DNA of 64,000 nt, from the IMG/VR virus record IMGVR_UViG_3300020046_001945; one strand, given 5' to 3'. Made by a program: the position numbers and the translations under genes. The notes under the pieces were generated by a model. The model worked only from the letters and a program-made list of their open reading frames with translations. It was not told where the DNA came from and did no database searches. Positions within the stretch are counted from its first letter, which is position 1. Every line of letters starts with the position of its first letter. The stretch is from an uncultured virus (IMG/VR IMGVR_UViG_3300020046_001945). Its lineage: Duplodnaviria > Heunggongvirae > Uroviricota > Caudoviricetes. Shown here piece by piece: positions 1 to 18,669 of the stretch.

Positions 1-21
1 TAACTTTAAGGAGGATTAAAA

Positions 22-511: not shown

Positions 512-847
512 ATGAAACTTGGGATTTTCGTTTGTGAGAATGCTGTTCAAGTTATGATTGTTGCCGAAACTGGATGTTGTAAGAGTTTGTTCCGCATGAT
601 TCACACTCCAATTGGAAGGTTTGAAGGAAGAAATATTACGACCATGAGTAACCGAACGAAGTTCTTTACAGATTATGAAATTATTAAAGAACAAGGAAAA
701 ATTATTTATGGATATGAAGTTACTAAAGAATATCAAAGACGCTTGAACTTATTGATGGTTGAGTGTAAGGATGTTGCTGATATTGATGAATATAGAAATA
801 AAACTACTGCTCTGTGTTTGGAATTTGAAAAGAAATACTCATTCTAA
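512..847 (+). CDS. hypothetical protein, possibly with an MKI/RRMK-like module
   Basis: start moved to ATG 512 after GAGG; MKLGIFV...YQRRLNL. Confidence 0.65.
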   Translation: MKLGIFVCENAVQVMIVAETGCCKSLFRMIHTPIGRFEGRNITTMSNRTKFFTDYEIIKEQGKIIYGYEVTKEYQRRLNLLMVECKDVADIDEYRNKTTALCLEFEKKYSF

Positions 848-880
848 TTAAAAGACACTCGCAAGTTTTCCAAGGAGATT

Positions 881-1351
881 ATGATGTCTTTTGAAAATGG
901 TATAGTGATTGAATATACTCCTAAGTTTAGTCATTTTATTAGATATTATTTGGAACCGTTTTATGAACGGTCTGTGAAGATTAACGCGAGATTGATTTTC
1001 TGGCCGATTCGTGTTTATTATCGTGGTGAATATTTTCGTTCTGAACGAGCAGATTTATATCAAAGAATTTCTCATGTTATGGTTGTTTTGAATATTCTTG
1101 GAGCAATTGGAATTCTTTGGTTTATTAGTATTTGGTTAGCGTTAGTAATGGTTGGGTGGTTTGTTGTAATCCAAATCTGCTCAGTCCACACAGAACATCG
1201 TCACATTAAATCTTATGTGAAGATGAAGAAACCGATGAGATTGAAATGTTTGCCGGGAGCAAGATATAGATTTGAATGTAAGAAAAATGGAACGTTGATG
1301 ATGAAAATGATTAATGGTGAACGAATGAAGAAATGGGAGGAAAAGAAATGA
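881..1351 (+). CDS. membrane protein with C-terminal MKI/RRMK module
   Basis: hydrophobic segments, then PMRLKC...ERMKKW. Confidence 0.7.
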   Translation: MMSFENGIVIEYTPKFSHFIRYYLEPFYERSVKINARLIFWPIRVYYRGEYFRSERADLYQRISHVMVVLNILGAIGILWFISIWLALVMVGWFVVIQICSVHTEHRHIKSYVKMKKPMRLKCLPGARYRFECKKNGTLMMKMINGERMKKWEEKK

Positions 1352-1794
1352 AAATTTCTTTTAAGATGTCTGCGTCTAATGATGTTTCTTTAGTTCTTGT
1401 TGATTTTATTATGACTGAAGCGAGAGTTGGTAAGAAATACGGAAAGATTCTTGTGGCAATTATGATTACAAATCCAAGTCTAAGAGGTGGGGAGTTTCCG
1501 GCTATTCTTGGATGTTCTCAAAACAAATTGAATCTTAGACGACTGTTGAAGAATAGACATAATGAATTATCAGATGTTAAAAAATTTAAGGGAGATGGGT
1601 TTGCGAATAGAGTGTTTGATTCTGTTGATTTTGCTAAATTGAACGAACTGAGAAATGCTCTTGATAAGAAGTATCCACCTCCTACTAAGTTATCGGGGGT
1701 TAGTTTAGAAAAGTGGGAAGAGTTTCGTCGTGAGAATGTGTCCAAACCAATTGAAGAGGTGAATAAGTTTTTGTATGAGCAGGAGGTCATGTGA
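1348..1794 (+). CDS. N-terminal MKI/RRMK module fused to an unknown domain
   Basis: ATGA overlap; MKISFKM...NLRRLLK followed by about 75 extra aa. Confidence 0.65.
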   Translation: MKISFKMSASNDVSLVLVDFIMTEARVGKKYGKILVAIMITNPSLRGGEFPAILGCSQNKLNLRRLLKNRHNELSDVKKFKGDGFANRVFDSVDFAKLNELRNALDKKYPPPTKLSGVSLEKWEEFRRENVSKPIEEVNKFLYEQEVM

Positions 1795-2021
1795 AGATTG
1801 TAATGTTGGTCGCAGATTCAAATAATGAGAAATATGGAACGTGTTTGTTTGGAATCATGCGTGGTTATTGGACCAGGAGTAAAAGACAGAAAAGTCAAGA
1901 CTGGAATTCTATTCATTTGTTTGTTGGTGAAGATTCTGATGGAAGGGTGTGGATTTCTAAGAAGAGTAATGTTAGAAGATTGAAGAAACAATTTGGTGAA
2001 AATAATAGGAATGAGGGGTAA
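1791..2021 (+). CDS. MKI/RRMK family small protein
   Basis: MKIVMLV...NVRRLKK. Confidence 0.7.
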   Translation: MKIVMLVADSNNEKYGTCLFGIMRGYWTRSKRQKSQDWNSIHLFVGEDSDGRVWISKKSNVRRLKKQFGENNRNEG

Positions 2022-2022
2022 A

Positions 2023-2349
2023 ATGAGTCATTCAAGTGGATTAGTTAGATTTTACGATGGTGAGATTTGGCATTTTGAATACAACGGAACTTCCGACTAT
2101 TGTATTTCACACATTTACAAGACTGCTCAGGAAGTAAGTGACAATTGGAGAAATCATGAATGGATGACTTGTTCTTGTGGATCATCTGAACAAGTTGAAG
2201 TTTATTCATTTTACGGCAGAGGATTTATGATGGATGGAACAGCTTGTAGGAAATGCTGTTCTTTAAATGTTGATATGGATGATTGTGGAATGGATGATGC
2301 TTTGTCTGTTTGGGTGAAAGAATATCTAAACGAAAGTGGGGAAGAATGA
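2023..2349 (+). CDS. Cys-rich hypothetical protein
   Basis: start moved to ATG 2023 after GAGGGG; CSC and CRKC motifs. Confidence 0.65.
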   Translation: MSHSSGLVRFYDGEIWHFEYNGTSDYCISHIYKTAQEVSDNWRNHEWMTCSCGSSEQVEVYSFYGRGFMMDGTACRKCCSLNVDMDDCGMDDALSVWVKEYLNESGEE

Positions 2350-2555
2350 AAATACAAATGTTCTTCCAAGGATTCACCAATGATAGATACTTTGATTTAG
2401 TTGCTAAAAGCGATGAATATAGAAATGATTATTGTGACAATGACGAAGTATATGTATATGTTTTGAAGCAAAAATTCAATCGGTGTATGATTTCTAAGAA
2501 TGGAAATCGTAGGAGAATTGAAAAATTGACAATGGGATTAAGAGTTGAAGATTAA
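2346..2555 (+). CDS. MKI/RRMK family small protein
   Basis: ATGA overlap; MKIQMFF...NRRRIEKL. Confidence 0.7.
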   Translation: MKIQMFFQGFTNDRYFDLVAKSDEYRNDYCDNDEVYVYVLKQKFNRCMISKNGNRRRIEKLTMGLRVED

Positions 2556-2711
2556 CTTGTATATTCATCCTGAGAATGATGACTATTTTCTTTCGTTTGG
2601 TAGACATAGTAAACATGAGAATTATTCAAGAAAGTCATCAATATTTTTTTTGATGGTAAAGAATATATCATTGGTAACTGTAACTATAGAAGAATGAGGA
2701 AGACTTTATGA
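2545..2711 (+). pseudogene. MKI/RRMK family member frameshifted at a T8 tract
   Basis: not in ORF track; TTG-KINLYI...; one extra T at 2644-2651 restores ...NYRRMRKTL and a stop overlapping the next ATG. Confidence 0.65.
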
Positions 2712-2902
2712 AGATTGAAATGGTGATTACACCAGAAACAAATTGTAAGTTTTTTGCGATTAGATACAACAGTATCTTTGGCAACAAATATATTATGTAT
2801 GTAATTCATTATAAAAACTATAAACTAAGCCCAAAAGTGAACCAACCAAGATTCGATAAAGTTGGAAGAGAACATGGAATTTTTGAAGGGGTAATAAAAT
2901 GA
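2708..2902 (+). CDS. MKI/RRMK family small protein
   Basis: MKIEMVI...NQPRFDK. Confidence 0.65.
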   Translation: MKIEMVITPETNCKFFAIRYNSIFGNKYIMYVIHYKNYKLSPKVNQPRFDKVGREHGIFEGVIK

Positions 2903-3345
2903 ACTACATTGACTCAAGTGAATTGAATCTACATCATGTTGCTATTGTTCGTCCAAATAATGATATTAGATATTGTTATTTGATTAAGGACAACTATGTG
3001 AATATCATGACTGGATTGACTGAAGATGTTTATGAAGACGTAGTTGGGATTCTTCCGGTTGATATTTCATCCGAAGTTGTTAGAGTTACTGCTTCATATC
3101 CAGTTGAAAAAATGAAAGAGTTGAGACTCAATAACGGGCAATATTTCCGATTTAGTGGAAAACATAATAGCTTTACTACGTCATATCCTATTTTTGTTTA
3201 TGATTGGTGTAATTATTCTTTGGTCGGAGAAAGTTATTGGGATGTTGATGTGCTGTTGAAGAAGTTTGAAGGATATACAACAATTGATTTAGTTGATGTT
3301 TCATATAAGATTAAAAACAATTGGAAAGAAAACCGTGAAGATTAA
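2899..3345 (+). CDS. hypothetical protein
   Basis: 148 aa ORF, ATGA overlap. Confidence 0.7.
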   Translation: MNYIDSSELNLHHVAIVRPNNDIRYCYLIKDNYVNIMTGLTEDVYEDVVGILPVDISSEVVRVTASYPVEKMKELRLNNGQYFRFSGKHNSFTTSYPIFVYDWCNYSLVGESYWDVDVLLKKFEGYTTIDLVDVSYKIKNNWKENRED

Positions 3346-3496
3346 AATGTATATCACAACTGGATATAGTTGTTGTTTTTCACACCTTCCATCATCAGGA
3401 ACAATGAACATAATTAAACAAATATTTCCAGATAATTCCGTCTATTCATCGGTGTATTTGGTAATGAACAAACAACGAATTGAAAAATGGAAATGA
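3335..3496 (+). CDS. MKI/RRMK family small protein
   Basis: GTG-KIKMYI...NKQRIEKWK. Confidence 0.65.
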   Translation: MKIKMYITTGYSCCFSHLPSSGTMNIIKQIFPDNSVYSSVYLVMNKQRIEKWK

Positions 3497-3681
3497 AACA
3501 CAAACTTCAAATTTTTATGTATGATGCTGCAACCATCCGATTGTTTTTTAATGAACGGAAGTTTTTAATAGAGGTGAATGCCAATAAGATTTTTTGTAAT
3601 GGCGTGTGTAATGATACAAATCCAAATTATGTCATTGCTGGAAATATATGTCGTCGTCTTAAAATGAAAGGATATATGTGA
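3493..3681 (+). CDS. MKI/RRMK family small protein
   Basis: ends ICRRLKMKGYM; close paralog of 3865..4050. Confidence 0.7.
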   Translation: MKHKLQIFMYDAATIRLFFNERKFLIEVNANKIFCNGVCNDTNPNYVIAGNICRRLKMKGYM

Positions 3682-3872
3682 AGATTAGCATGTTTGTGGT
3701 TGATGTTTACCATGGGTCCGAATTATATTTTTCAAGAATAAAAGATACTAATACTAAACCCGAAAATGGAAGTTGGGACGATGTTTACATATACACACAT
3801 AATTGGATTTCTAAAAAGTGTAATGTTGAACGAATGGAAAGAATCTTAGGAGTTAAAAATATAAATGTCTAA
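3678..3872 (+). CDS. MKI/RRMK family small protein
   Basis: MKISMFV...WISKKCNVERMER. Confidence 0.7.
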   Translation: MKISMFVVDVYHGSELYFSRIKDTNTKPENGSWDDVYIYTHNWISKKCNVERMERILGVKNINV

Positions 3873-4050
3873 GTGTGTTTTTAAAATCTTAGAAAGAAAC
3901 GACGAATCAATTTATTTAAGAGGAATGGGAATAGCTGGTTTGCTGCTGAGTGACATGGTTTATTGTTCGGGTTTGTGTGTTGATTCAAATCCTGATTTTA
4001 TAATGGCTGGTGTTTATTGTAGAAGATTGAAAAAGAAAGGCTATATGTGA
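3865..4050 (+). CDS. MKI/RRMK family small protein
   Basis: ends YCRRLKKKGYM. Confidence 0.7.
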   Translation: MSKCVFKILERNDESIYLRGMGIAGLLLSDMVYCSGLCVDSNPDFIMAGVYCRRLKKKGYM

Positions 4051-4454
4051 AATACAAACCAAGTTTAGAAGAACATTTTTGGTTTGCAACGTCTCTACCA
4101 ATGATGTTATACCTTTTTCCGATAATGTTATTAAAAGATAATGCTAAAGATTATAAAGTCTGGTTGGCAATTTCTGTATCAGCAAGTTTGTTATTTGGCG
4201 GATTCTTTTTTAATTCTTGGTTTGGAAGTGCGGCAATTGTTTATGTTTTTGGTTGGACTTGGTTGTTTGTTAAGTTTGGTATGAATACTTATCCGGAACA
4301 CTTGTATTATGAATGGTTCATGAAAAGAAAGCCATTTGTTATGAAAATAGGAAGTGTGAATTATTTTGAATACAAACGAAATGGATATCTTTGTCATCAT
4401 TATTTTGAAGACAACAAGAGAATGAAGAAATGGGAACAAGAGGACGATGAATGA
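4047..4454 (+). CDS. membrane protein with C-terminal MKI/RRMK module
   Basis: hydrophobic segments, then FVMKIG...NKRMKKW. Confidence 0.7.
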   Translation: MKYKPSLEEHFWFATSLPMMLYLFPIMLLKDNAKDYKVWLAISVSASLLFGGFFFNSWFGSAAIVYVFGWTWLFVKFGMNTYPEHLYYEWFMKRKPFVMKIGSVNYFEYKRNGYLCHHYFEDNKRMKKWEQEDDE

Positions 4455-4663
4455 AAATTGAATGGAAGTTACGTCAGAACACATCTGCCACATTACTAAT
4501 AACTTCTGCCACATTACTAATAACTTCATCAATTAATGGAGAACTTTGGTCACATATTTCTTTCAATACACCCGGTATGATGGTTTGGGGGTATGGTGCG
4601 ATTCATTCAAAAACGACATGTTACAAATTATCTGAACGAATTAAAGTGAAGGAGATTTGGTGA
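4451..4663 (+). CDS. MKI/RRMK family small protein
   Basis: MKIEWKL...LSERIKV; internal 7-aa duplication. Confidence 0.65.
   Translation: MKIEWKLRQNTSATLLITSATLLITSSINGELWSHISFNTPGMMVWGYGAIHSKTTCYKLSERIKVKEIW
4484..4525. repeat. perfect 21-bp tandem duplication
   Basis: TCTGCCACATTACTAATAACT x2, in frame (SATLLIT x2). Confidence 0.95.
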
Positions 4664-4848
4664 GAACAGTTTTAACAATCACTTACGAAAACTGGACAAC
4701 GATTTCGGTAATATTCAAACAGTCTGATTCATTAACATACAGATTTCGTTATGAATCCGATAGATTTATTTACTTTGCTAAACCAACATATGTTCCTAAA
4801 ATAAGAAGATTTTCACAACGAATGAAATATAAGGATAAGATTTTATGA
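4660..4848 (+). CDS. MKI/RRMK family small protein
   Basis: GTGA overlap; ends RRFSQRMKY. Confidence 0.65.
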   Translation: MRTVLTITYENWTTISVIFKQSDSLTYRFRYESDRFIYFAKPTYVPKIRRFSQRMKYKDKIL

Positions 4849-5072
4849 AGATATTAATGTTTGTGGAAGATGGAGATGGGATGACAACTTTTCGGATTTT
4901 GAACAAATCTTATCCGAGGCAAAAACATCGGAAACAATTTCCAAGAGACTATCCGGTTAGAATATATTGGTTTTGGGAAGACAAAAAACATTATGGTTCA
5001 AATTTCAAATCAGTAATGCGCCGAATGGAAACTTTTGGATACAACAAACAAGAAGAGATTTATACAATATGA
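4845..5072 (+). CDS. MKI/RRMK family small protein
   Basis: MKILMFV...VMRRMETF. Confidence 0.7.
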   Translation: MKILMFVEDGDGMTTFRILNKSYPRQKHRKQFPRDYPVRIYWFWEDKKHYGSNFKSVMRRMETFGYNKQEEIYTI

Positions 5073-5248
5073 AAATGATATTAAAAGTTAAAGACCATGG
5101 CTATTATGCAGGATTCGCCATCGGCATAAATAACAACTTTCATGTTGGATGGAACATAGAATATGAGCAAAATATTCTTTACTTCGGTGGTTCAAGAAAA
5201 GCAGCGTCCAAAATAGCAAGAAGATTGAAGATTGGTAGGGTTGTGTGA
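5069..5248 (+). CDS. MKI/RRMK family small protein
   Basis: start moved to ATG 5069; MKMILKV...IARRLKI. Confidence 0.7.
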   Translation: MKMILKVKDHGYYAGFAIGINNNFHVGWNIEYEQNILYFGGSRKAASKIARRLKIGRVV

Positions 5249-5424
5249 AAATAAGTTTAAGAATAAAAGATTTTGGCACATGGGCAGCGTTTTAATTAAA
5301 TAACGATATTAGTAACGATTTTAATTTCGATTATCAAAATAGCATTCTATACTTTGGTGGCGCATTCAGACGAGAAAAAGCAAAAGTATTAGCCAGAAGA
5401 ATGAAATTGGAGAAAATTAAATGA
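5245..5424 (+). pseudogene. MKI/RRMK family member with in-frame stop
   Basis: not in ORF track; MKISLRIKDFGTWAAF*...ILYFGG...LARRMKL with TAA at 5293-5295; paralog of 5069..5248. Confidence 0.75.
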
Positions 5425-5834
5425 TTAACTTTTTATTAACACCGTTTTATTTTGTCCATTTTCGGCTTTTTGATTTTGGCGATTGGATTGAAGATTATGT
5501 TGGTGGTTTTACAGCAGTTATTCAATCATTATTATTGTGTTCTATTCCAGTATCAGTTGTTATCACATCGGGGGCGTTCAAAAATATGATTGGTGTTTTG
5601 TTTGGGGTATTCCTTTTTGCTCCTTTCATTTACACCATTCATCAAATTGTTGATAATGACTGGTTTGAAGACAGAATTAAACTAAATGCTAAGATTGTCT
5701 GGAGAAAATTGCTCAAAAGAAATTATTGTGTTATAAAAGTTGATAGGTATGGAGATTATCACATTATAAAAGATACAAAATGGAAATGTGATTATTATGG
5801 GCACGATAGATTAACGAAATGGAACATCAAATGA
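5421..5834 (+). CDS. membrane protein with C-terminal MKI/RRMK module
   Basis: two hydrophobic segments, then YCVIKV...DRLTKW. Confidence 0.7.
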   Translation: MINFLLTPFYFVHFRLFDFGDWIEDYVGGFTAVIQSLLLCSIPVSVVITSGAFKNMIGVLFGVFLFAPFIYTIHQIVDNDWFEDRIKLNAKIVWRKLLKRNYCVIKVDRYGDYHIIKDTKWKCDYYGHDRLTKWNIK

Positions 5835-6022
5835 AAATTACTTTATATGTTCAACTTGAAACAGTAACTCATCACTTTTCAATAACAAGAGCGTGTAGGA
5901 AAGATTTTCAAACCGGCGACTCTGTATATGTTTTGAGGAGACCATTAGAAGAAACAAATTACGTTAGTTACAAAGTAAACAAACGAAGAATTTGTAAATT
6001 TGTTCCGGATGTATCAAAATGA
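5831..6022 (+). CDS. MKI/RRMK family small protein
   Basis: MKITLYV...NKRRICKF. Confidence 0.7.
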   Translation: MKITLYVQLETVTHHFSITRACRKDFQTGDSVYVLRRPLEETNYVSYKVNKRRICKFVPDVSK

Positions 6023-6198
6023 AAATCGGGCTAACTATTCACTACGGATATTATTCAGCATTAACATTCGTGAATACAAACAAAGATGATATGATTCTTT
6101 TTTATTTGGATGATGCTATAATGACTAATTGTGATATAAATGAAAAGAGATTCAATAAGTTTCTTTCTCTTCCTCTATTCTATGAGGAACCATTTTGA
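6019..6198 (+). CDS. MKI/RRMK family small protein (59 aa, not in ORF track)
   Basis: MKIGLTI...NEKRFNKF; overlaps both neighbours by 4 nt. Confidence 0.65.
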   Translation: MKIGLTIHYGYYSALTFVNTNKDDMILFYLDDAIMTNCDINEKRFNKFLSLPLFYEEPF

Positions 6199-6383
6199 AA
6201 ATATTGTTTTATGTTGAACCTGAAAAAGATTATACGCTGTTCAGAGTTCTTAAAATAAAAGGAAGTAGAAAGAATAGCATTTGGTGTAATGATACAGACA
6301 AAGTATATTTCAAACATCTTAGTGCTGGATATATTGGCTTTGGAAAATTTAAGTCAAAAAGACTGAACAAATATAAAGAATAA
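6195..6383 (+). CDS. MKI/RRMK family small protein
   Basis: MKILFYV...SKRLNKY. Confidence 0.7.
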   Translation: MKILFYVEPEKDYTLFRVLKIKGSRKNSIWCNDTDKVYFKHLSAGYIGFGKFKSKRLNKYKE

Positions 6384-6388
6384 AGTTC

Positions 6389-6417
6389 TTGACTCTATCC
6401 TTGGAAGAAATTATATT
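6389..6417 (+). promoter_or_regulatory. sigma70-type early promoter
   Basis: TTGACT-N17-TATATT in one of the few gaps in the array. Confidence 0.75.
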
Positions 6418-6433
6418 AAGGTGTGGAGGTGTT

Positions 6434-6616
6434 GTGAAGATTATAATAAAAATAGGAATGAGTGATTGGCCAGCATTCTTCTGCTTCTTTGATGAGAGAA
6501 ATATGTTTAATGTTTGTGGAAGCTTGTTCTATTCATCATTCCAATACATTAGATTAAACAATAGAAATTGTGAGCGCAGATTCGGCAAACTCTGGAGGAT
6601 TCAGTCGTGGTCGTAA
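6434..6616 (+). CDS. MKI/RRMK family small protein
   Basis: GTG start after GGAGG; MKIIIKI...CERRFGKLW. Confidence 0.7.
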   Translation: MKIIIKIGMSDWPAFFCFFDERNMFNVCGSLFYSSFQYIRLNNRNCERRFGKLWRIQSWS

Positions 6617-6792
6617 AAATGTTTGTTAAGTTCAAGTATCTATCCAACAAAGCTCCAAGGTTTTGTATTCTTAATACCAACCAATTTATTAGTGATTCGA
6701 AAAGCACACTCTATTGGATTAAAGAATACAAAAAAGAGTATGAAATTTGTAGAATATGCGAACGGCGAATGACGAAATGGGAACAGAAATGA
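6607..6792 (+). CDS. MKI/RRMK family small protein
   Basis: MVVKMFV...CERRMTKW. Confidence 0.7.
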   Translation: MVVKMFVKFKYLSNKAPRFCILNTNQFISDSKSTLYWIKEYKKEYEICRICERRMTKWEQK

Positions 6793-6965
6793 ACATTAAG
6801 ATGCGGCTTGTTTCTAATAATGTTGGTGTGGAAATTCTAAAGTGGAGTTTTTGTAAATGGCGATTGATTATCAGAACTAATTGTTGGCGTAGAGGATATG
6901 TTGAAAACTGCAAAGAACAAACTCGCATGGTTAAATTTCTTACAAGAGTTACGGAGAATATCTAA
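6789..6965 (+). CDS. MKI/RRMK family small protein
   Basis: MNIKMRL...QTRMVKF. Confidence 0.65.
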   Translation: MNIKMRLVSNNVGVEILKWSFCKWRLIIRTNCWRRGYVENCKEQTRMVKFLTRVTENI

Positions 6966-7435
6966 TGAAAGAACCAACGGATGAAATTCAAATCAAAGAT
7001 GTATTTGTGTTTGGTTTGTTGTTACCAATAATTACATGTATTGTATATATTCGCAAAATTAAATATTTGAACTTAGAAGAACATGCTGGAATTATTGTTG
7101 GATTGTCATATGTTATTTTGTCATTGTTTATTAGTTTGGCGATAACATATAACCTAATTCCGATTTATGTTTATTTGATTAGCAGTGCTTTGTTTCCGTT
7201 CTTTCTTACTACTCCTCCTCTTAAACATATGAATTTTATAAAAGGTTATGTGTTTTATGATATTGTTAATGCATATCTAAAGAAACATTTTCAAAAGAAG
7301 ACAGTTGTAAGGTTGTCAATCTATTCTCATTTTGGCGGAATGTATTCAAGTGCTTCGGTAATATATTACGAAAAGAATAACCGATACGCTTCGGAGTTTA
7401 AATCAGTTCGGTTGAAGAAGTGGGATGATAAATGA
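6965..7435 (+). CDS. membrane protein with C-terminal MKI/RRMK module
   Basis: three hydrophobic segments, then VVRLSIY...VRLKKW. Confidence 0.7.
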   Translation: MKEPTDEIQIKDVFVFGLLLPIITCIVYIRKIKYLNLEEHAGIIVGLSYVILSLFISLAITYNLIPIYVYLISSALFPFFLTTPPLKHMNFIKGYVFYDIVNAYLKKHFQKKTVVRLSIYSHFGGMYSSASVIYYEKNNRYASEFKSVRLKKWDDK

Positions 7436-9785: not shown

Positions 9786-9786
9786 C

Positions 9787-10164: not shown

Positions 10165-10242
10165 TTCATTCCAAAAATCTTCTGAAAGGCCGATTAAATG
10201 TGGATTTCTATATCTTTTAATATTGTCGCGGAAGGTGGATAA

Positions 10243-10768: not shown

Positions 10769-10769
10769 A

Positions 10770-11648: not shown

Positions 11649-11896
11649 AAATATCTATTTGGATGTATGAAGATAATAGTCGGAGGGACTTCAACACAAA
11701 CGACAATGTTTCGAATTTTAGAATCTTTCAGTCAAGAGACTTGTTTGGTGATATTTTTGGTTTGCTCATCTACCCTAAAAAATACGAAGCTATAAAAATG
11801 GAATATCGTTATCCGGCGTTGTTAAAACAGAACCGAAGAATATTTGAAAGATTAGGAAATTACAAAGCTATAAAACATTTGGAATTAAATTCATGA
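11645..11896 (+). CDS. MKI/RRMK family small protein
   Basis: MKISIWM...RRIFERLG. Confidence 0.65.
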   Translation: MKISIWMYEDNSRRDFNTNDNVSNFRIFQSRDLFGDIFGLLIYPKKYEAIKMEYRYPALLKQNRRIFERLGNYKAIKHLELNS

Positions 11897-12108
11897 AAAT
11901 CTATTTTACTACAATATTGGCAACGAGAGACTACAAGCGATTCGCGTTTAGATTTGGGCCAAGAGGAAAACCTTGGTATGAACATTTGTCAATCAATGCC
12001 CAGGAATTTGAAAGAAATACATTGGTTTATACAGACGTTAAATGCGAAAGTCTAAGAAAAGTCTATGCTAATTTCTGTAGACGAATGAAGATGGAAGGAA
12101 AAGGATGA
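11893..12108 (+). CDS. MKI/RRMK family protein (FGP subtype)
   Basis: MKIYF...RFGPR...YANFCRRMKM. Confidence 0.7.
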   Translation: MKIYFTTILATRDYKRFAFRFGPRGKPWYEHLSINAQEFERNTLVYTDVKCESLRKVYANFCRRMKMEGKG

Positions 12109-12461
12109 AAATAAAAATGTATGTGTATGGTGGTGATTATTTAATTCCGACAAGATGTAAACCGAGTTGTGGATCATTCAACAATTTTGTTTTTATAGAT
12201 TGTGATATTAAACAACAAATAGAAATATGTAAATCCCATTCTATAAGACGAAGATGGAATAAAATAGACATAGAAACTCCAAACAATTTTCAAGTTGCGG
12301 AAAAAGATTATTTTTCCATTAGCGATTTGTATTCTCCAGGAGTTTTAGAAACATTTTTAAACTATTATTCAACACAATCAAAATCAAAAATCAAATTAGT
12401 AAGCGATTGGCAATGGAAATATTGTTTCGTTTCAAATGTAGAGGTTGTTCATGCCATATAA
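12105..12461 (+). CDS. N-terminal MKI/RRMK module fused to an unknown domain
   Basis: MKIKMYV...IRRRWNK followed by about 60 aa. Confidence 0.65.
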   Translation: MKIKMYVYGGDYLIPTRCKPSCGSFNNFVFIDCDIKQQIEICKSHSIRRRWNKIDIETPNNFQVAEKDYFSISDLYSPGVLETFLNYYSTQSKSKIKLVSDWQWKYCFVSNVEVVHAI

Positions 12462-12936
12462 ACTAAAACACAAATCAACTGGATTGTATTGGAAAGGTGG
12501 AGGAACTGTTCCGTTCACCGATGTCGGTCTAAATTCATTTTGTTGGAGTAAGAATGGAAAGAGTTGGAATCTAAAGCAACATCTTTCGTCTGCTATTTCC
12601 AATACATTCCACAAAGAATATATCCGAACAAAAACCGCAAACTTTTATAACTTGGCTCCTTGTGAAGATACTTACAATCGTTTCTCAGAAGAATGTGAGA
12701 TTGAATATTTCCAAGACGCAATTTCAATTCCATTTGCTGAGTTCCGAAAAGATGTAAGAGAGCCAACTAAAAAAGTCTGTTTGAAACTTGAAAACAATTG
12801 GAATAATGTTTATATTCTTTTTGGAACGCATATCAATTTAGATAAGTTTCTATTCTATATGGTTAGCAAAACAGAGGGAGTTGAATATTATCCTAAAGCA
12901 AAATATGCGAATTATAGACGGAGAATGAAACTGTGA
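12451..12936 (+). CDS. hypothetical protein with C-terminal MKI/RRMK module
   Basis: YKLKHKSTGLYWKGG domain, then KVCLKL...YRRRMKL. Confidence 0.7.
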   Translation: MPYKLKHKSTGLYWKGGGTVPFTDVGLNSFCWSKNGKSWNLKQHLSSAISNTFHKEYIRTKTANFYNLAPCEDTYNRFSEECEIEYFQDAISIPFAEFRKDVREPTKKVCLKLENNWNNVYILFGTHINLDKFLFYMVSKTEGVEYYPKAKYANYRRRMKL

Positions 12937-13124
12937 AATTTAACATACGAATGACTCAATTTTATTCAGAAAACTATTGGTGTGAATTGTTGTCGTGGTC
13001 TATTAGTATTGGTGGAATCATTAGAAGTGATAAAGCCGGAATACCTAAGAAGTTAACTACAATAAATCTAAGAGACAAAACCAGAGTTGGTGGACGATAC
13101 ACAAACAAAAGGATTAAACTATGA
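12933..13124 (+). CDS. MKI/RRMK family small protein
   Basis: MKFNIRM...NKRIKL. Confidence 0.65.
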   Translation: MKFNIRMTQFYSENYWCELLSWSISIGGIIRSDKAGIPKKLTTINLRDKTRVGGRYTNKRIKL

Positions 13125-13489
13125 TGTGCGAGGATATGAAAAAATTCAAATCGGCAAAAATTACTAAACCAGTCAAAGAAATTATTGATTATCTTAAAAG
13201 TGTCAAAGCTGATAACAATAAGAAATGTGTTACATTATCTATTGATTTAAATGTTGAAACAGAAAATCAAGATTCTGGCATGACATACGAAACTCATTCA
13301 ACATATCTTTGTAGTATTAAGAAAAAAGATGATGCGAAATATATTGAGAAATTATACAAAAAACTAAATGAAGAAGAAAAACAAGCACTTATATATTCAG
13401 TATATTTGAAAAATGAAAATTCTGATTTAGAAAAGAGACGAGACTGGATTTATGTGCTCGGTGGTAATTTAGACATGGAGATTTTATGA
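13121..13489 (+). CDS. hypothetical protein
   Basis: 122 aa ORF, ATGA overlaps. Confidence 0.65.
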   Translation: MMCEDMKKFKSAKITKPVKEIIDYLKSVKADNNKKCVTLSIDLNVETENQDSGMTYETHSTYLCSIKKKDDAKYIEKLYKKLNEEEKQALIYSVYLKNENSDLEKRRDWIYVLGGNLDMEIL

Positions 13490-13695
13490 AATGTGGAATA
13501 AGAGTTTCTGAAATAAAACTAACAAAAACATATCAGATATGGTTTGGACCAGATCAATATAATGAGGATTGGGAATTGTCTTGTATGATTCTTGAATATG
13601 AATTTAGAACTGGAAAAATTAGAATTGCTAGAAATAGATTAGAACGAAAATACAGAAGAATATGCTCTCGTTTGAAAATGAACTGGGAATATTAA
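13486..13695 (+). CDS. MKI/RRMK family protein (FGP subtype)
   Basis: WFGPD...YRRICSRLKMNW. Confidence 0.7.
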   Translation: MKCGIRVSEIKLTKTYQIWFGPDQYNEDWELSCMILEYEFRTGKIRIARNRLERKYRRICSRLKMNWEY

Positions 13696-13696
13696 A

Positions 13697-13888
13697 ATGA
13701 AAATTAAAATGAAGATGGTGAAATCGGGGTTTTATTTTGGTCCTGATGGGGAAGTTGATGGTGATTGGGAAGACCAGTTGATTGTTAACTTTTGGGAAAT
13801 TAACAAGGGTGCTGTGAGAGCTTCTGACCAGTTATCTGCGAAATATATAAGATTGGCTAACCGAATGAAATTAGATTACTGGTTCTAA
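13697..13888 (+). CDS. MKI/RRMK family protein (FGP subtype)
   Basis: MKIKMKM...YFGPD...LANRMKL. Confidence 0.7.
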   Translation: MKIKMKMVKSGFYFGPDGEVDGDWEDQLIVNFWEINKGAVRASDQLSAKYIRLANRMKLDYWF

Positions 13889-13900
13889 GAAAGGTATTAT

Positions 13901-14116
13901 ATGAAACTCCAATGGGTTATTTGGGATGATTCTAAGCTTGGTGAAAATTTTACAATAAAATTTGGTAATATTGATGTTGCGTGGGGTGGTGTTTTAACTG
14001 TGACATCTGAAGAAATGGGAGGCGAACGTTTCAGATTTCCAGGCAAAACCGACACAAATCAAAATTTACTTAAATCTTATCAAACCTTTTGTAGAAGGAT
14101 GAAATTAAACCGATGA
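13901..14116 (+). CDS. MKI/RRMK family small protein
   Basis: MKLQWVI...YQTFCRRMKL. Confidence 0.7.
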   Translation: MKLQWVIWDDSKLGENFTIKFGNIDVAWGGVLTVTSEEMGGERFRFPGKTDTNQNLLKSYQTFCRRMKLNR

Positions 14117-14319
14117 AAATTAAAATAAGAGTTAGTAATGATTTTGGAGGAAGAATTTATTTTGGTCCAAATCCTGACGAATGGTCATACACAAAAACTG
14201 TCGTGATTACGTTTGAAGAATTTGAAGCTGGACATGTTAGAGGAATCAAATATCTCGAAAAGAAATATAAAAAAGTAACAGAAAGATTGAAGATGAAGTA
14301 TTACGATCCGGAAAATTAA
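14113..14319 (+). CDS. MKI/RRMK family protein (FGP subtype)
   Basis: MKIKIRV...YFGPN...VTERLKM. Confidence 0.7.
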   Translation: MKIKIRVSNDFGGRIYFGPNPDEWSYTKTVVITFEEFEAGHVRGIKYLEKKYKKVTERLKMKYYDPEN

Positions 14320-14346
14320 AAAGCCCCAATTTTACTTGAGGCTTTT
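14319..14346. terminator. intrinsic terminator between convergent genes
   Basis: AAAAGCCCCAA...TTGAGGCTTTT hairpin with A/T tracts on both sides; the stem pairs fully (one G-U) on the - strand. Confidence 0.75.
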
Positions 14347-14350
14347 GTTT

Positions 14351-14821
14351 TTATTCTTGTTCTTTCTTTAGTTTCAATCTTCCATGTTTCTCATATTCTT
14401 TAGCAGCTTCGGGGTCTTTAGAAATTCTAATAAGTTCTTTTCTTGGTAGACTCATTTTTACTTGATTTCTATCGTCCTTATCATTCTTACCCAATTCCAA
14501 TGTCTTAACAGTATCAAGATTTATATTCAAAGCCGCTAAGAATGGATTCCGCATGTCTCTGAAAGTTTTTGCTGGGTTAGATGATTGTGGTTTCCAAAAA
14601 GAAATAACTGTTTCCTGATGCTTTGGTGTAGTTCCACGAATCAACTCATCAAGATTTAGAAACATCGCCATCTGAATTTCATCAAATGTGTAGTTAGACA
14701 AATCAATTCCGGCAGCTTTCAATTCTTCCATGGTCTTCTTGACATCATCCAGTTTAACATTTTCTGTCTGACGAGCCATTTCAGTAATCATGGTATTTTC
14801 AATCAAAGTTCTAAAATCCAT
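14351..14821 (-). CDS. late protein, candidate internal head protein
   Basis: start moved to MDFRTLIENTMITE; the function is an inference. Confidence 0.55.
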   Translation of the reverse strand: MDFRTLIENTMITEMARQTENVKLDDVKKTMEELKAAGIDLSNYTFDEIQMAMFLNLDELIRGTTPKHQETVISFWKPQSSNPAKTFRDMRNPFLAALNINLDTVKTLELGKNDKDDRNQVKMSLPRKELIRISKDPEAAKEYEKHGRLKLKKEQE

Positions 14822-15117
14822 TATGGTTTCCTCCACAATTCTTCCGGAACATTATAGCTCTTTGGACCGCGCATATTATCCCAAATAGAATCAACTGTTT
14901 TTCCCAAAGAACGAGCAGCCTTATCATAATTAAATCCAGCTGCTTGGATGTGAGCCAAATAAGCAAGAACCTTTACACTATCTTCACTCAGCTTTCTATC
15001 AAACTTCATTTTAGATAGTTTATCAGCCAAATCATTTACTTTGTCTACAGAAAAATTGACGGCTTCATTTAGTTCTTTTCCAGCCATCTCCTTTTCAACA
15101 AATTCCTTAAAATCCAT
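14821..15117 (-). CDS. late protein, candidate internal head protein
   Basis: MDFKEFVE...LNE; TAAATA and GAGG upstream. Confidence 0.55.
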   Translation of the reverse strand: MDFKEFVEKEMAGKELNEAVNFSVDKVNDLADKLSKMKFDRKLSEDSVKVLAYLAHIQAAGFNYDKAARSLGKTVDSIWDNMRGPKSYNVPEELWRKP

Positions 15118-15134
15118 GATTACCTCTTTTCAAT

Positions 15135-15140
15135 TATTTA
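15135..15140 (-). promoter_or_regulatory. late promoter core TAAATA
   Basis: resembles T4 late TATAAATA; recurs before many structural genes. Confidence 0.6.
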
Positions 15141-15527
15141 TCTTACAACTATTGTGCTATCAGGATTCTTTCTTACAAGTTCTGTTATTTTAGCAACAAC
15201 ATCGCCACATTTGTAAATAGTTCCTACTTTCAAATCTCTCATCTCTCCTATCAAAATACAACCGTGAGTGTCTTTGTCGGTATTTCCACCATGAATCAAA
15301 ACTCCATCAAATTTCGGAACATCCTTCACAGCAACCAATTCTTTTTTAAATCTATTTGAATAACGAACAAAAACAGAATATGTTCCTGTTGGGATTGCTG
15401 TTTCTCCCCACACCTTAACTTCTCTAACCTTATCCTCAAGTGTAAATGCGTAGAATACACCATCTACAAACATCTTTCCCATTGTAACATGTTCTAAATA
15501 TTTCTCTCTAACTACTTCTATTAGCAT
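15138..15527 (-). CDS. DUF5675-family protein (L,D-transpeptidase-like HxxN..GC), candidate endolysin
   Basis: FTLED...GETAIPTGTY...GVLIHGGNTDKDTHGCILIG. Confidence 0.75.
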   Translation of the reverse strand: MLIEVVREKYLEHVTMGKMFVDGVFYAFTLEDKVREVKVWGETAIPTGTYSVFVRYSNRFKKELVAVKDVPKFDGVLIHGGNTDKDTHGCILIGEMRDLKVGTIYKCGDVVAKITELVRKNPDSTIVVR

Positions 15528-15545
15528 TGTCTACCTCTTTGGAGA

Positions 15546-15551
15546 TATTTA
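15546..15551 (-). promoter_or_regulatory. late promoter core TAAATA
   Basis: 18 nt upstream of ATG 15527, with GAGG RBS. Confidence 0.55.
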
Positions 15552-15552
15552 T

Positions 15553-15720
15553 TTGAAAATCAATCTGAAAGTTGAATATGAACACCATGATTATTTTGTA
15601 GCCCGATTTGGTGAATATATTCTGTGTCAATGGTTCCGAAGAGAATGCGGAGTCTTCTTTTTATCATCCCATCGTTACGAAATATTTGTTAGCTACAAGA
15701 TATTCCGGGAACATAAATAG
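15553..15720 (+). CDS. orphan MKI-like small protein (55 aa, not in ORF track)
   Basis: GGAG RBS, TTG-KINLKVEY...RFG; no clear RRMK end. Confidence 0.45.
   Translation: MKINLKVEYEHHDYFVARFGEYILCQWFRRECGVFFLSSHRYEIFVSYKIFREHK
15714..15719 (+). promoter_or_regulatory. late promoter core TAAATA
   Basis: upstream of ATG 15742, with GAGG RBS. Confidence 0.55.
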
Positions 15721-15741
15721 TTCTAAAGCGAGGAACTAATA

Positions 15742-16581
15742 ATGGGTTTTAAGGAATGGTTGAATGAAGATGTTGATGTTGCTTCCGCTCTAAAAGATAA
15801 AGCTGAGAAGGGACTATCAATCAAGACTAAGTTTGGAACATTTAAGTTTGACAAGATGGATAAGAAGAAGTATGTATTTCTTCTTGACGGAAAAGATAAA
15901 GATATTAAGGTTGAAGTAGTTGCTAAACCTAATGACCGTTACCTTGACCTAACTGTAACTGTTCTTAAAGGTGAAGAGATTGTTGGTAAGAAGAAGTCTG
16001 AAAAAGATGATTCGGATGTTCATTACGAAAAGACTGACATCACTCGCAAAGCAACAAAAGATATTAAGAAAGCAATTGAAAGTGTTCTTGGTTCATTGAA
16101 TGAAGATGAGATTCTTCAATTAGATGAAGACATGGGTTTGACTGCTCTTGCTGGGGCGATGGCTCCTCTTGTAGTAATGGCAATTCCCGCTCTTTACAAG
16201 TCTGCTGTTGAGAATGGATGGTTTGGACTTGGTTCAGAAAAAGATAGCAAGATTACTAAGCCTGAAGATATTGCTGACAGAATGAAAAAGTTCTCTCTGA
16301 AGAAGACTCAAGAACTATTGAAAGACGAATCTCAAGTTGATGAAATTGTTGATGAAATTATCGACGCAATCAAAAAGAATTCCCCTAGATTCATTGTAAA
16401 TCCAAGAACCAAGGGTGAACTTTACAACAAGGTTCTTTACTATCTTCGTAGAAATGCAGAAGCTAAGGCAAGCGAACCAGCAGCTAAAGCTATGGGTTCT
16501 GTAAGAGATGCAGCTAAAGAAGCTTTGGCTAAGTCATCTGGCTACAAGAAAGGTGGAGTTTGGTTCGGAAATCAAACCTAA
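15742..16581 (+). CDS. late protein, candidate internal head protein
   Basis: MGFKEWLNE N-terminus, internal LNE/LDE sites, Lys/Asp/Glu-rich. Confidence 0.6.
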   Translation: MGFKEWLNEDVDVASALKDKAEKGLSIKTKFGTFKFDKMDKKKYVFLLDGKDKDIKVEVVAKPNDRYLDLTVTVLKGEEIVGKKKSEKDDSDVHYEKTDITRKATKDIKKAIESVLGSLNEDEILQLDEDMGLTALAGAMAPLVVMAIPALYKSAVENGWFGLGSEKDSKITKPEDIADRMKKFSLKKTQELLKDESQVDEIVDEIIDAIKKNSPRFIVNPRTKGELYNKVLYYLRRNAEAKASEPAAKAMGSVRDAAKEALAKSSGYKKGGVWFGNQT

Positions 16582-16599
16582 AATAGGCAAAAATAGCTA

Positions 16600-16628
16600 T
16601 TGACAATCGAGCCCCGTGGAAGTATATT
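16600..16628 (+). promoter_or_regulatory. sigma70-type early promoter
   Basis: TTGACA-N17-TATATT. Confidence 0.8.
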
Positions 16629-16649
16629 AACTCTACGGGGCTTTTCTTT
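16610..16649 (+). terminator. intrinsic terminator overlapping the promoter
   Basis: AGCCCCGTGGA...TCTACGGGGCT followed by TTTCTTT; the -10 box lies in the loop. Confidence 0.7.
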
Positions 16650-16659
16650 GGAGGTTCAT

Positions 16660-16860
16660 ATGTTTGTAAAGCTCATCGCCGCTTTCACTGTCTCCATTCT
16701 CTTGATTGCTTTTGGAGTTAAGTCCATTTTCGCAATCCTCGTAGCCCAGGCCGCTATCACACTTCTCATTTCCATTCTTGAGCAAAATTCAATTGACAAT
16801 CAGCTTGACAAAAACTGCTCCAAATTTAAGAAAGATTTGAGAAAGTATTATACACACTGA
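16660..16860 (+). CDS. small membrane protein
   Basis: start moved to ATG 16660 after GGAGG; hydrophobic N-terminal 40 aa. Confidence 0.65.
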   Translation: MFVKLIAAFTVSILLIAFGVKSIFAILVAQAAITLLISILEQNSIDNQLDKNCSKFKKDLRKYYTH

Positions 16861-16902
16861 GTTTTTCCTATGTTAAAATAATGGTATACAGGAAGGTATA
16901 CT

Positions 16903-17316
16903 ATGAAACTTGACGTAGAATATTCAGGAACAATTGTAAAGCACTCTTCAGCCACACGAACCATTGTTGAGTCAGACCCGAAGGAAGTAGTTCGTGTTTC
17001 ACAAATCAAGGTTAAATTAGAATATCAATCAGGAATGCTTGATGACATTCTTATTGCCGATGACAGAATGATTGCGGACGCGAATACTTATAAGACTTGC
17101 TCTTGGGACCAGCGTGTAGGAAGTTATGAATTAGAAATCAATGAAACTATTCTTTGTGTTGTCATTAACAAGATTGACAGAAAGAATAAGGATGAAATGA
17201 CACAAGAACTGAATATCACATTTGAAACAGCAGATGTTGAGAAGGCTGGGTTTGTTGGTCATTATCTCCGGGATAAGGAAAATCCAACTAAACTCACTCT
17301 TCGAAATCTGGAATGA
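16903..17316 (+). CDS. hypothetical protein
   Basis: 137 aa ORF with RBS. Confidence 0.7.
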   Translation: MKLDVEYSGTIVKHSSATRTIVESDPKEVVRVSQIKVKLEYQSGMLDDILIADDRMIADANTYKTCSWDQRVGSYELEINETILCVVINKIDRKNKDEMTQELNITFETADVEKAGFVGHYLRDKENPTKLTLRNLE

Positions 17317-17873
17317 ACTCACAAGAAATAATTGAAAAAACATTAGCGTTGAATCTATTTGAACCAAGTAAGAAGCGGTCTAACTTCTTTATTCTTGGTT
17401 CTGAATATCGTTACAATAACTCTCAGGAATGTCTGTTTACCGCAGATGTTCCTTTTCATTTTCTACAATACGTTTGCTTATCTTTGTCATTATCCGAACA
17501 CATTCCCGAACTTCGCGAATATATCAAAAAAGCCAAACCATCCGAACCTACTTTAGTTGAAGAATACAACCAAAACAAAATTGGGCTTCCGTCATTCTGT
17601 GTTCTGAACTGCCGACAAGAAAATGTCATTGGTGTGTTCTCTGACTATTGGTTGTCACAAGCCGTTAAGAAGAATACAACAATTTGTTATTTTTGGAGAA
17701 CTACATTTGAAGATAGAACCGACTATCTCGGAATTAAATATTCTATCTTCAACAAAAAGTTTCAGACATTTGAAGATTACAAGACAAAAACAAAATTTAT
17801 AAAAGATTACAAAACAAGAGATAATATTAACTTACTAATGGAGTTTTCTAAACTATGGCTGGTAAAAAGATAA
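17313..17873 (+). CDS. hypothetical protein
   Basis: 186 aa ORF, ATGA overlap. Confidence 0.7.
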   Translation: MNSQEIIEKTLALNLFEPSKKRSNFFILGSEYRYNNSQECLFTADVPFHFLQYVCLSLSLSEHIPELREYIKKAKPSEPTLVEEYNQNKIGLPSFCVLNCRQENVIGVFSDYWLSQAVKKNTTICYFWRTTFEDRTDYLGIKYSIFNKKFQTFEDYKTKTKFIKDYKTRDNINLLMEFSKLWLVKR

Positions 17874-18082
17874 AAAAGAAATGTTATTTGAAGATTATCT
17901 CATGTGGTAATTTTTTCTTTTCTAATAGTACCCGTGGAGAAAGATTTGATATGAGAAAAGGTGTCCGAATAGATATTGATGAATTTTTACTTAACACACA
18001 TACTTTCATACCAGATTGTATTTCATATGACTTAGACAAAGCATACAGAACTGTTATTCGTAGATTGAAATTGAGGCAATGA
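17855..18082 (+). CDS. MKI/RRMK family small protein
   Basis: KCYLKI...YRTVIRRLKL. Confidence 0.7.
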   Translation: MAGKKIKKKCYLKIISCGNFFFSNSTRGERFDMRKGVRIDIDEFLLNTHTFIPDCISYDLDKAYRTVIRRLKLRQ

Positions 18083-18083
18083 T

Positions 18084-18290
18084 ATGTTTGTTTTACGAAT
18101 CAAATTAGATGGAGAAACAATCTACATTCAAGCAAAACTATTAGACGAAAAGAATATGTATACAACTGTTCAAATTCTATACAGCGAAATAGAACTTAAA
18201 CAACCATTTTACATTCCCGATGCTGGCACGACAAACCAAAACATTAATTTTGGATACTGTGCAGTAAAAAGAAGGTTGAAGTTGAAATGA
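18084..18290 (+). CDS. MKI/RRMK family small protein
   Basis: MFVLRIKL...TNQN...YCAVKRRLKLK. Confidence 0.7.
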   Translation: MFVLRIKLDGETIYIQAKLLDEKNMYTTVQILYSEIELKQPFYIPDAGTTNQNINFGYCAVKRRLKLK

Positions 18291-18481
18291 AAATAGTAAT
18301 AATTGCCGAACCTAACAGAATAAACAACGGAATCATCTTTGGGGCAAAATTCGTGGTTAAAAAATATCCCTATATTAGGTATAATGAATTTGAAAATAAC
18401 CATTGTGAATATGTAACTCCGCTTGAAGAAAAATACGAAACAATTTGTAGAAGATTGAAATTGAAAAGAATATACTTATGA
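18287..18481 (+). CDS. MKI/RRMK family small protein
   Basis: MKIVII...IFG...YETICRRLKLK. Confidence 0.7.
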   Translation: MKIVIIAEPNRINNGIIFGAKFVVKKYPYIRYNEFENNHCEYVTPLEEKYETICRRLKLKRIYL

Positions 18482-18669
18482 CGCTTTACATTACTATTTG
18501 GAAAAGTCTCGGTGGGTTATCAATATACAATGACCCAACAACCCCTGAAAATTATGAAGACAGAGTTCAATTAACTTTTCCAGAATTACAATTACAAAAA
18601 CCATTAGTTTTTCCAGACAAATGTTCCGAGAAATACGTTCATATTAAAAGAAGGATGAAACTCAAATGA
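18478..18669 (+). CDS. MKI/RRMK family small protein
   Basis: MTLYITI...YVHIKRRMKLK. Confidence 0.7.
   Translation: MTLYITIWKSLGGLSIYNDPTTPENYEDRVQLTFPELQLQKPLVFPDKCSEKYVHIKRRMKLK

Follow-up and report, generated by a model that had tools for sequence, protein, structure and literature searches.

The uncultured Caudoviricetes virus recorded in IMG/VR as IMGVR_UViG_3300020046_001945 is represented by a 64,000-nucleotide (nt) stretch of DNA, referred to here as the window, whose first 20 kb (G+C about 0.31-0.34) carries a long array of very small genes. The main array fills the plus strand from 512 to 14319 with small open reading frames (ORFs), 49 called genes and one broken copy, and a satellite block of four further genes lies on the same strand at 17855-18669; we refer to individual genes by their first position. 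The encoded mini-proteins have a median length of 64 amino acids (aa) and are basic, with a median isoelectric point (pI) of 9.4 and a median net charge of +5 (tail median +3, body median +1). A first-pass annotation, made from the letters of the DNA, described the array as 45-49 copies of a single architecture with conserved ends and a hypervariable middle. As far as sequence tells, the array is not one family: its proteins fall into at least two new families with several copies each, a number of pairs and many singletons.

The genes of the main array are tightly packed. Of its 49 junctions, 41 are overlaps, 27 of them of exactly 4 nt (21 ATGA, 5 GTGA and 1 TTGA) and 14 of other lengths, in agreement with the translational coupling through NTGA overlaps that the first-pass annotation had described; the non-overlapping junctions are six gaps of at most 15 nt and two larger ones, of 33 nt (847/881) and 186 nt (10056/10243). 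On its upstream side the array is preceded by a plus-strand sigma-70-like promoter candidate at 435-463 (TTGACA-17-TATATT, an 11/12 match to consensus), with a terminator-like hairpin just before it at 387-412, and a second terminator-like hairpin, on the minus strand at 14319-14346, marks the array's end before converging minus-strand genes. The promoter call comes from a consensus scan only, and promoter-like sites as a class number 99 in the sequence and 97 in shuffles. Because the array lies behind a strong promoter-like site and its genes are coupled, we infer that it is expressed early, which fits the timing suggested at first pass: its proteins would be made at the start of infection from a host-type promoter-like site. 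The 186-nt gap at 10057-10242, the sole long intergenic gap within the array, contains five copies of TGTGGATARAT (at most one mismatch each) within 130 nt, a pattern not enriched elsewhere in the window, and could represent an operator or a further promoter region.

Five copies said to be missing from the program-made ORF list do exist. Four of them lie at 2545-2697, 6019-6198, 9344-9523 and 15553-15720. The fifth, 5245-5424, which begins with a GTG in a GTGA overlap and is a tandem paralogue of the mini-protein gene 5069-5248 (plus strand), is interrupted at codon 17 by an in-frame TAA and is likely a pseudogene or a recent inactivation. The plus-strand gene 2545-2697 has the head motif defined below and lacks the tail; it is a paralogue of 15553-15720 (blastp, 40% identity over 37 aa, E 5e-6), and both start with TTG.

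The larger of the multi-copy families, which we term family A, has 14 copies in all, located in the array's distal third and in the satellite block. Its core was defined by iterated hidden Markov model (HMM) searches against a database of 696 sequences, which contained the 61 early proteins in native, reversed and shuffled form (five shuffles per protein) together with the remaining six-frame ORFs from the window. Ten members were recovered at E<=1e-14 with no decoys (alignment A1): 10243, 11893, 13486, 13697, 13901, 14113 and the four satellite genes (17855-18082, 18084-18290, 18287-18481 and 18478-18669), all on the plus strand, so that the satellite block noted at first pass holds four copies, every one of them family A. 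The ATG at 17855 is backed as a start codon by the homologue P0025. Among the array members, 10243-10491 (82 aa) has an N-terminal extension that is also conserved in P0053, 11893-12108 encodes 71 aa, and four adjacent genes span 13486-14319 (13486-13695, 13697-13888, 13901-14116 and 14113-14319).

Four further plus-strand copies were added with extended profiles and profile-profile comparison (hhalign; 51 proteins, five shuffles each). The 59-aa product of 9344-9523 joins with an extended-profile E of 3.2e-6 and an hhalign probability of 91.6% over its full length. Two peripheral members are 11212-11433 (73 aa; hhalign probability 90.3%, residues 5-58) and 10770-10958 (62 aa), which matches 11212 by blastp at E 9e-6 and whose profile E of 2.8e-5, obtained after its own inclusion in the profile, is partly by construction. 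The last copy is a C-terminal fusion at 12766-12936, within the 161-aa protein 12451-12936, whose residues 108-161 score 26.4 against family A where shuffles reach at most 12.0 (probability 44%). A further round adds no member: the next scores, 0.026 for 3487, 0.033 for 2708 and 0.034 for 3335, are comparable to that of a decoy at 0.054.

Beyond this virus, the A1 profile finds 57 relatives at E<=1e-3, seven of them at E<=1e-10, among 1.84 billion representative proteins; these metagenomic proteins are all 42-82 aa long and all have the same head and tail. No relative was found by tblastn of one family A member against a phage collection at E<=1, nor by a pattern search of viral contigs with one member (six pattern matches, none real). 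A DNA pattern for F-C-R-R-M-K-L-K gave 17 loci in viral contigs, with no family A or B ORF among the 1556 ORFs screened there. Longer proteins (145-2000 aa) gave no family A match at E<=0.01, which is weak evidence.

An AlphaFold2 (AF2) model of 13486 built from the A1 alignment has a predicted local distance difference test (pLDDT) value of 78.7 and a predicted template-modelling score (pTM) of 0.60, and contains a hairpin of strands 2-10 and 13-21, a strand at 33-36, a short helix at 37-42, a strand at 44-46, a helix at 53-62 and a final strand at 66-68. Across 72 sequences, R62 is invariant (72/72) and E39 (69/72), Y56 (65/72), F20 (64/72) and K64 (62/72) nearly so; conservation extends to M1, K2, I3, G21, I35, L52, F59, R61, M/L63 and L65, to an aromatic residue at 29 and to hydrophobic residues at 5, 7, 18, 33 and 40. 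Residues 8-17, 22-32 and 41-51, by comparison, vary in both sequence and length. Family A thus has a constant core and three variable loops, and for this family the earlier idea of a constant scaffold with a variable surface holds. The predicted structure is that of a small basic alpha/beta domain, in which a hairpin (MKIxIxI...hxFG, where h is hydrophobic) is followed by a strand and a turn with the near-invariant Glu, and then by a Tyr-bearing C-terminal helix that ends in R-R-(M/L)-K-L.

This domain matches no catalogued family that we searched, just as the first-pass annotation had failed to recognise it. Neither Pfam nor PHROGs match any mini-protein among all 61 proteins, NCBIfam and PADLOC match none of the A1 members, and PDB sequences give no family A match at E<=10. 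Structure searches with the family A model are similarly unproductive: Foldseek gives a best E of 1.2 against the PDB and 0.15 against BFVD, and a wide VIA search over 48,161 chains a best Z of 3.3, with no convincing fold match in any of them. The ESM Atlas provides no usable feature match, its own model having a pTM of 0.36 and its structure rows not being credible. Literature listings contained no description of such a family, weak evidence that none has been published. On these sequence comparisons, family A is clearly a new domain family.

The second multi-copy family, family B, has six plus-strand copies in the proximal half of the array. Iterated HMM searches link 1791-2021 (76 aa), 2346-2555, 3678-3872 and 5831-6022, and alignment A3 adds 4845-5072 and 6195-6383; 25 database homologues were found at E<=0.01, including near-identical matches to 4845 and 6195. 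Its AF2 model is poor (pLDDT 52.2) and shows only a hairpin (3-8 and 15-20) and a helix (50-57). Family B lies at 1.8-6.4 kb and family A at 9.3-14.3 kb and 17.9-18.7 kb, a spatial separation that fits local duplication. A third group, family C, is a plus-strand pair (3487-3681 and 3865-4050; blastp E 8e-13) with the tail CRRLK(M/K)KGYM and five database homologues.

Mini-like modules also occur on larger proteins of the array. The plus-strand gene 881-1351 encodes a membrane-anchored form, in which a hydrophobic N-terminal part precedes a beta-rich C-terminal module of about 40 aa ending in R(M/L)(K/T)KW. Further copies with the same tail type lie at 5421-5834 and 6965-7435, also on the plus strand, and 4047-4454 has a matching C-terminal module (881 versus 4047, blastp E 1e-4). 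Transmembrane-like windows are found in 881, 5421 and 6965, and none in 4047 at the threshold used. At 7842-8540 (plus strand), a 232-aa candidate HD-like phosphohydrolase (weak match to phrog_19425, E 1.8e-5) has a last segment of about 46 aa that resembles a mini-module (QMKIERH...KRMEKWK). Apart from the pairing of 881 with 4047, the grouping of these modules was made by eye, and an HMM of the C-terminal modules finds no further members outside the five sequences from which it was built. Three array paralogues of about 90 aa (9510-9785, 9787-10056 and 10484-10768) are of another kind: they have neither head nor tail motif, share the C-terminus YK(I/P)VNKLT, and contain Cys/His pairs (C.H ... 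C..C) that look zinc-ribbon-like.

The conserved ends themselves were scored as two motifs, a head, M[KR]-h-x-h-x-h, and a tail, R[ML][KTERSN][KLMYWI] within the last 16 residues. The tail is present in 27 of the 53 block proteins, where 1000 shuffles average 0.64 and never exceed 4, and is absent from all 45 other ORFs of at least 100 aa in the window; the interiors of the same block proteins contain four matches in 3905 residues. The head is present in 26 of the 53, compared with 0.8 in shuffles and with 1/45 elsewhere in the window. Both ends are conserved beyond chance, as the first-pass annotation claimed, and the shuffles, the synonymous codons and the distances to the next start all indicate that they are not mere by-products of an AT-rich sequence full of starts and overlaps, the alternative it had named. 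The motif Arg is encoded by AGA (15), CGA (8), AGG (6), CGT (2) and CGG (1), and Ile at residue 3 by ATT (10), ATA (5) and ATC (3), in line with overall usage (279/114/72). In 22 of 32 tails the Arg lies at least 19 nt from the next start codon and is thus too distant for a Shine-Dalgarno role, and the tail is retained on the last block gene (14113-14319) and on genes that precede gaps. We reject a Shine-Dalgarno or internal-start origin of the tail on the basis of these codons and distances. The synonymous codon variation at both motifs means that selection acts at the protein level: head and tail are features of the proteins, and they recur across families between whose bodies no relationship is detected.

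How the array changes over short times can be read from wild strains. The first-pass annotation had called for a comparison of copy number across related phages, and this could be made in part, among near-identical strains: 20 listed sequencing runs contain part of 9000-14400, and we compared four in detail, each from a different study and labelled freshwater, soil, activated sludge and wastewater, respectively. Contigs from these runs align collinearly with the window and diverge from it by a few percent (a 16,344-nt record, for example, covers 1323-16166). That the region 1-20000 should occur in near-identical form under four habitat labels and in four studies is unusually broad for one phage lineage. 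Against this collinear background, one run has 296 extra letters at 2018/2021 and two have about 295 at 6959/6968, two skip 425 nt from 13730 to 14156 at a joint where 10-13 nt fit either side, and strain contigs show a 176-nt back-step at 18462/18287 and diverged patches of unchanged length at 2741-2824 and 10525-10717. Three runs have such a patch in the middle of the zinc-ribbon-like gene 10484-10768.

The 425-nt skip places the 13697 head in front of the 14113 body, and the database protein P0003 is exactly this chimera. Similarly, P0062 combines the body of 2346 with the tail of 3678, and in P0080 a diverged body is followed by the tail of 1791. Together, the strain cassettes, the skip and the chimeras show that the array turns over by recombination in the conserved head and tail segments, which deletes the genes between them, leaves chimeras and alters both the number of copies and the set of genes present. 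Entire segments of about 295 nt also come and go at gene boundaries. More distant loci show a related pattern, and the database lists contigs of about 73-76 kb from related phages. The metagenomic locus L001 encodes homologues of 16903-17316 (85% identity) and 17313-17873 (36%), followed by at least five family A mini-proteins that are at most 40% identical to any copy in the window and match non-syntenic paralogues best; this block is syntenic with, yet non-orthologous to, the satellite block. A second locus, L002, carries arrays of MKIEIKI-type mini-proteins, some of them family A and some without the tail. Next to the L002 arrays, two larger ORFs, 2477-3913 (478 aa) and 7291-7914 (207 aa), look by eye metallocarboxypeptidase-like and PP-loop (SGGxDS) ATPase-like.

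Recombination of this kind raises the question of whether heads and tails persist mainly as recombination modules, spread onto unrelated bodies by gene conversion and unequal crossing-over that make the boundaries of neighbouring genes more alike, and are thus an evolutionary footprint rather than a shared functional site. The breakpoints of P0003 and P0062 fall within head or tail segments, the 13730/14156 joint shares 10-13 nt, P0080 couples a diverged body to a tail identical to that of 1791, and the longest DNA similarities between paralogues in the window sit at tails and gene junctions. These similarities, however, extend over 23-64 nt at 70-88% identity, weak for ongoing conversion; moreover, the synonymous variation of the motif codons shows selection at the level of residues, and the tail is kept in distant metagenomic relatives of family A. 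We consider it possible but doubtful that recombination is the main reason for the persistence of the ends. Such a role would in any case leave room for a functional one, and does not conflict with the account of a functional repertoire that we propose below.

A different question is how many families the array contains. Relatedness among the mini-proteins is sparse: an all-against-all blastp comparison gives 19 pairs at E<=0.01, and iterated HMM clustering yields one cluster of ten, one of four and four pairs, leaving 39 of 61 proteins as singletons. Profile-profile comparison aligns the extended family B with the extended family A over a 10-column head only (probability 2%) and family C with family A over an 11-column tail only (probability 42%), and finds no match between C and B. 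When the body of family A (columns 8-55) was compared with the bodies of 23 other mini-proteins, each with 30 shuffles, the mean z was 0.28; z exceeded 2 for two of the 23 (6195 and 12933), and the rest scored like shuffles. The profile similarity expected at first pass to link all copies was therefore found within family A (14 members) and within family B (6), and it did not extend across the array. A tally of the end motifs in 55 ORFs (the broken copy and 15553 included) finds at least one motif in 45, both in 20 and neither in 10. Thus, the 45-49 copies counted at first pass correspond to the ORFs with either motif and not to demonstrable homologues: the array stands, and a single family of that size is not supported.

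It could still be argued that all 45-49 small ORFs form one ancient family, in which the middle has diverged beyond recognition while an N-terminal strand and a C-terminal basic helix stayed constant. The motif tally is consistent with this idea, as are the similar lengths of the proteins, the AF2 models of families A (strands 2-10 and 13-21, helix 53-62) and B (strands 3-8 and 15-20, helix 50-57), both of which start with a hairpin and end with a helix, and the gradual fading of family A through 11212, 10770 and the C-terminus of 12451. Against it, the only alignable columns between families are those of a head or a tail, non-A bodies are indistinguishable from shuffles in nearly all cases, and the deepest family A profile stops at 14 members, with the next scores at decoy level; family B, furthermore, is without the long L..KY..F.RR helix of family A, and its model is of low confidence. 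We regard a single ancient family as rather unlikely and favor an array of several families that share their ends.

Taken together, these results lead us to describe the locus as an early accessory array with two new paralogue families, ends maintained at the protein level and turnover by recombination, which may serve as a diversifying repertoire for interaction with the host; we hold this overall description to be more likely than not. In this account, the array proteins would be a diversifying set of small binders that act in host takeover or counter-defence; a host-interaction role for the mini-proteins is the leading but tentative assignment, about which we are somewhat more doubtful than confident. 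The anti-defence binders or adaptors for a common partner suggested at first pass would be roles of this kind, proposed from genomic context. The conserved head strand and the tail would serve as elements that close the fold or that dock to a common partner.

Several observations weigh against parts of this account. Membership at the edge of family A is soft: by HMM alone, 11212 scores E 0.007, about the same as a decoy (0.0087), and together with 10770 and the C-terminal part of 12451 it is best regarded as a peripheral member. The family B model is too poor to decide for or against a fold in common with family A, and failed profile tests do not prove separate origins because proteins of about 60 aa hold little signal. 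In family A, the head strand may pair with the C-terminal strand. At the nucleotide level, the motif Leu is encoded by TTG in 11 of 16 cases compared with 28% overall, a possible nucleotide-level constraint that is explained equally well by toggling between Met and Leu through ATG and TTG. The early timing is derived from position and from a consensus promoter scan that is not enriched overall. Finally, the array showed no defence-gene context, and no helix-turn-helix (HTH; Aca-like) regulator or known anti-defence family was found among the 61 proteins at E<=0.01 in Pfam and PHROGs, from which recent families may be absent.

The basic character of the mini-proteins raises the alternative that they are small nucleic-acid-binding proteins, acting as early regulators of transcription or translation or as DNA-coating proteins, rather than binders of host proteins. 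Their high median pI and positive charge, concentrated in the basic C-terminal helix, agree with such a role, as does the AF2 prediction of small beta-rich domains with a C-terminal helix, and the weak fold matches include chromo-barrel, Tudor-like and SH3-like binders of DNA or RNA polymerase (TM 0.29-0.36, E>1). Yet neither sequence nor fold searches (best Z 3.3) match any nucleic-acid-binding family, the membrane-anchored forms (881, 4047, 5421 and 6965) fit DNA binding poorly, and at least 14 divergent paralogues would be unexpected for general DNA coating. We therefore judge nucleic-acid binding unlikely as the general function of the set, and retain host interaction as our working proposal.

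A more ambitious form of that proposal treats the head strand together with the RR(M/L)K tail as a universal module found on some 45 early proteins that are otherwise unrelated, the membrane-anchored and enzyme-fused forms among them. This module would either close the mini-fold or dock the proteins to one common host or phage partner, or to each other, creating a combinatorial repertoire of binders reshuffled by recombination at their shared ends. We think this quite unlikely; if true, the phage would possess its own equivalent of a diversified recognition system, directed against the defences of the host.

Very improbable, finally, is that the motifs reflect no common protein feature and are by-products of translation signals in an AT-rich coupled operon, with the tail supplying the Shine-Dalgarno region for the gene downstream and the head corresponding to an initiation region that is rich in A and weakly structured: in 10 of 32 tails the motif Arg does lie 7-14 nt ahead of the following start, and some tails read AGGAGA, the second codon is AAA in 19 of 26 heads, TTG is enriched among the Leu codons, and the relative L002 has the head MKIEIKI on ORFs without a tail, but most motif Args are too far from a start and many are CGA or CGT codons incapable of a Shine-Dalgarno role, the tail persists where no gene follows closely, the synonymous codons of the head vary in proportion to overall usage, both motifs are scarce in the same phage's other genes, and R62 and K64 are invariant or nearly so in family A sequences of many sources.

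The rest of the window shows that the array belongs to a phage. Gene annotation identifies NAD-dependent ligase, helicase and PhoH genes at 24-33 kb, and genes for baseplate wedge and hub, tail and tape-measure-like proteins form a block on the minus strand at 33-64 kb. Megablast of the 20-44 kb region and of the array against the phage collection gave no match, and the best tblastn match of an 866-aa baseplate protein is to cyanophage wedge proteins at 23-33% identity. The source is thus an uncultured AT-rich phage with a contractile-tail baseplate, remote from all phages in the collections searched. Scans for transfer RNAs and Rfam families found none. Two very long minus-strand ORFs in the tail and baseplate block, of 2498 aa (39033-46529) and, beside it, 1181 aa (35443-38988), have no PHROG match at E<=1e-5. 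From the array to the satellite block, the sole strongly conserved phage family is represented by a 129-aa minus-strand protein at 15138-15527, which matches phrog_1501 (E 4e-23), a family without an assigned function.

Phage factors for host takeover and anti-defence come mainly from small early proteins, most of which are orphans that cannot be grouped. In this array, 14 copies of one domain of about 65 aa and six of another, with relatives in many metagenomes, allow conserved and variable positions to be read directly, and wild strains reveal how copy number changes. The array is thus a tractable system in which to ask what benefit a repertoire of tiny paralogous proteins provides, and whether shared ends act as a docking signal. 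If the repertoire idea is true, it would represent a new way for phages to diversify counter-defence; otherwise, family A is still a new domain family.

Among known systems, the array resembles in layout and presumed role the early accessory small-ORF regions of large lytic phages, such as the immediate-early "hyperplastic" regions of T4 and the host-takeover module of SPO1. Such regions contain dozens of closely spaced ORFs, about 50-100 aa in size, that follow host-type promoters close to one end of the genome; most have no assigned function, and they vary between relatives and are presumed to act on host processes. Unlike them, the array described here has a large share of paralogues (14 and 6 copies), a head or tail motif in most of its ORFs, and no PHROG or Pfam match among its mini-proteins. 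The internal proteins of T-even phages provide another parallel: they possess a conserved N-terminal capsid-targeting sequence on polymorphic bodies, and their loci likewise combine a short conserved N-terminus on fast-changing small proteins with reshuffling by recombination at the ends. T-even internal proteins, however, are made late, are packaged, and have their head peptide cleaved, whereas the genes described here form a promoter-proximal, coupled array on the strand opposite to the structural genes, which argues against a system of that type, and their products also have a C-terminal motif and a head that is predicted to be a structural beta-strand. Anti-CRISPR and anti-defence islands are clusters of small, fast-evolving, early phage proteins without detectable homologues. 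The array resembles them in its clustered, small and fast-evolving proteins; such islands hold a few unrelated genes each, while the array includes a 14-copy family and has neither an HTH (Aca-like) marker nor a known anti-defence family. Finally, family A recalls the small beta-barrel binders with a C-terminal helix of the Sso7d/chromo-like and Tudor-like kind, which are basic and about 60-65 aa long, in its size, its charge, its N-terminal strands of alternating pattern and its basic C-terminal helix. The resemblance is not backed by Foldseek (E>1, TM <=0.36) or VIA (best Z 3.3), and sequence searches provide no match.

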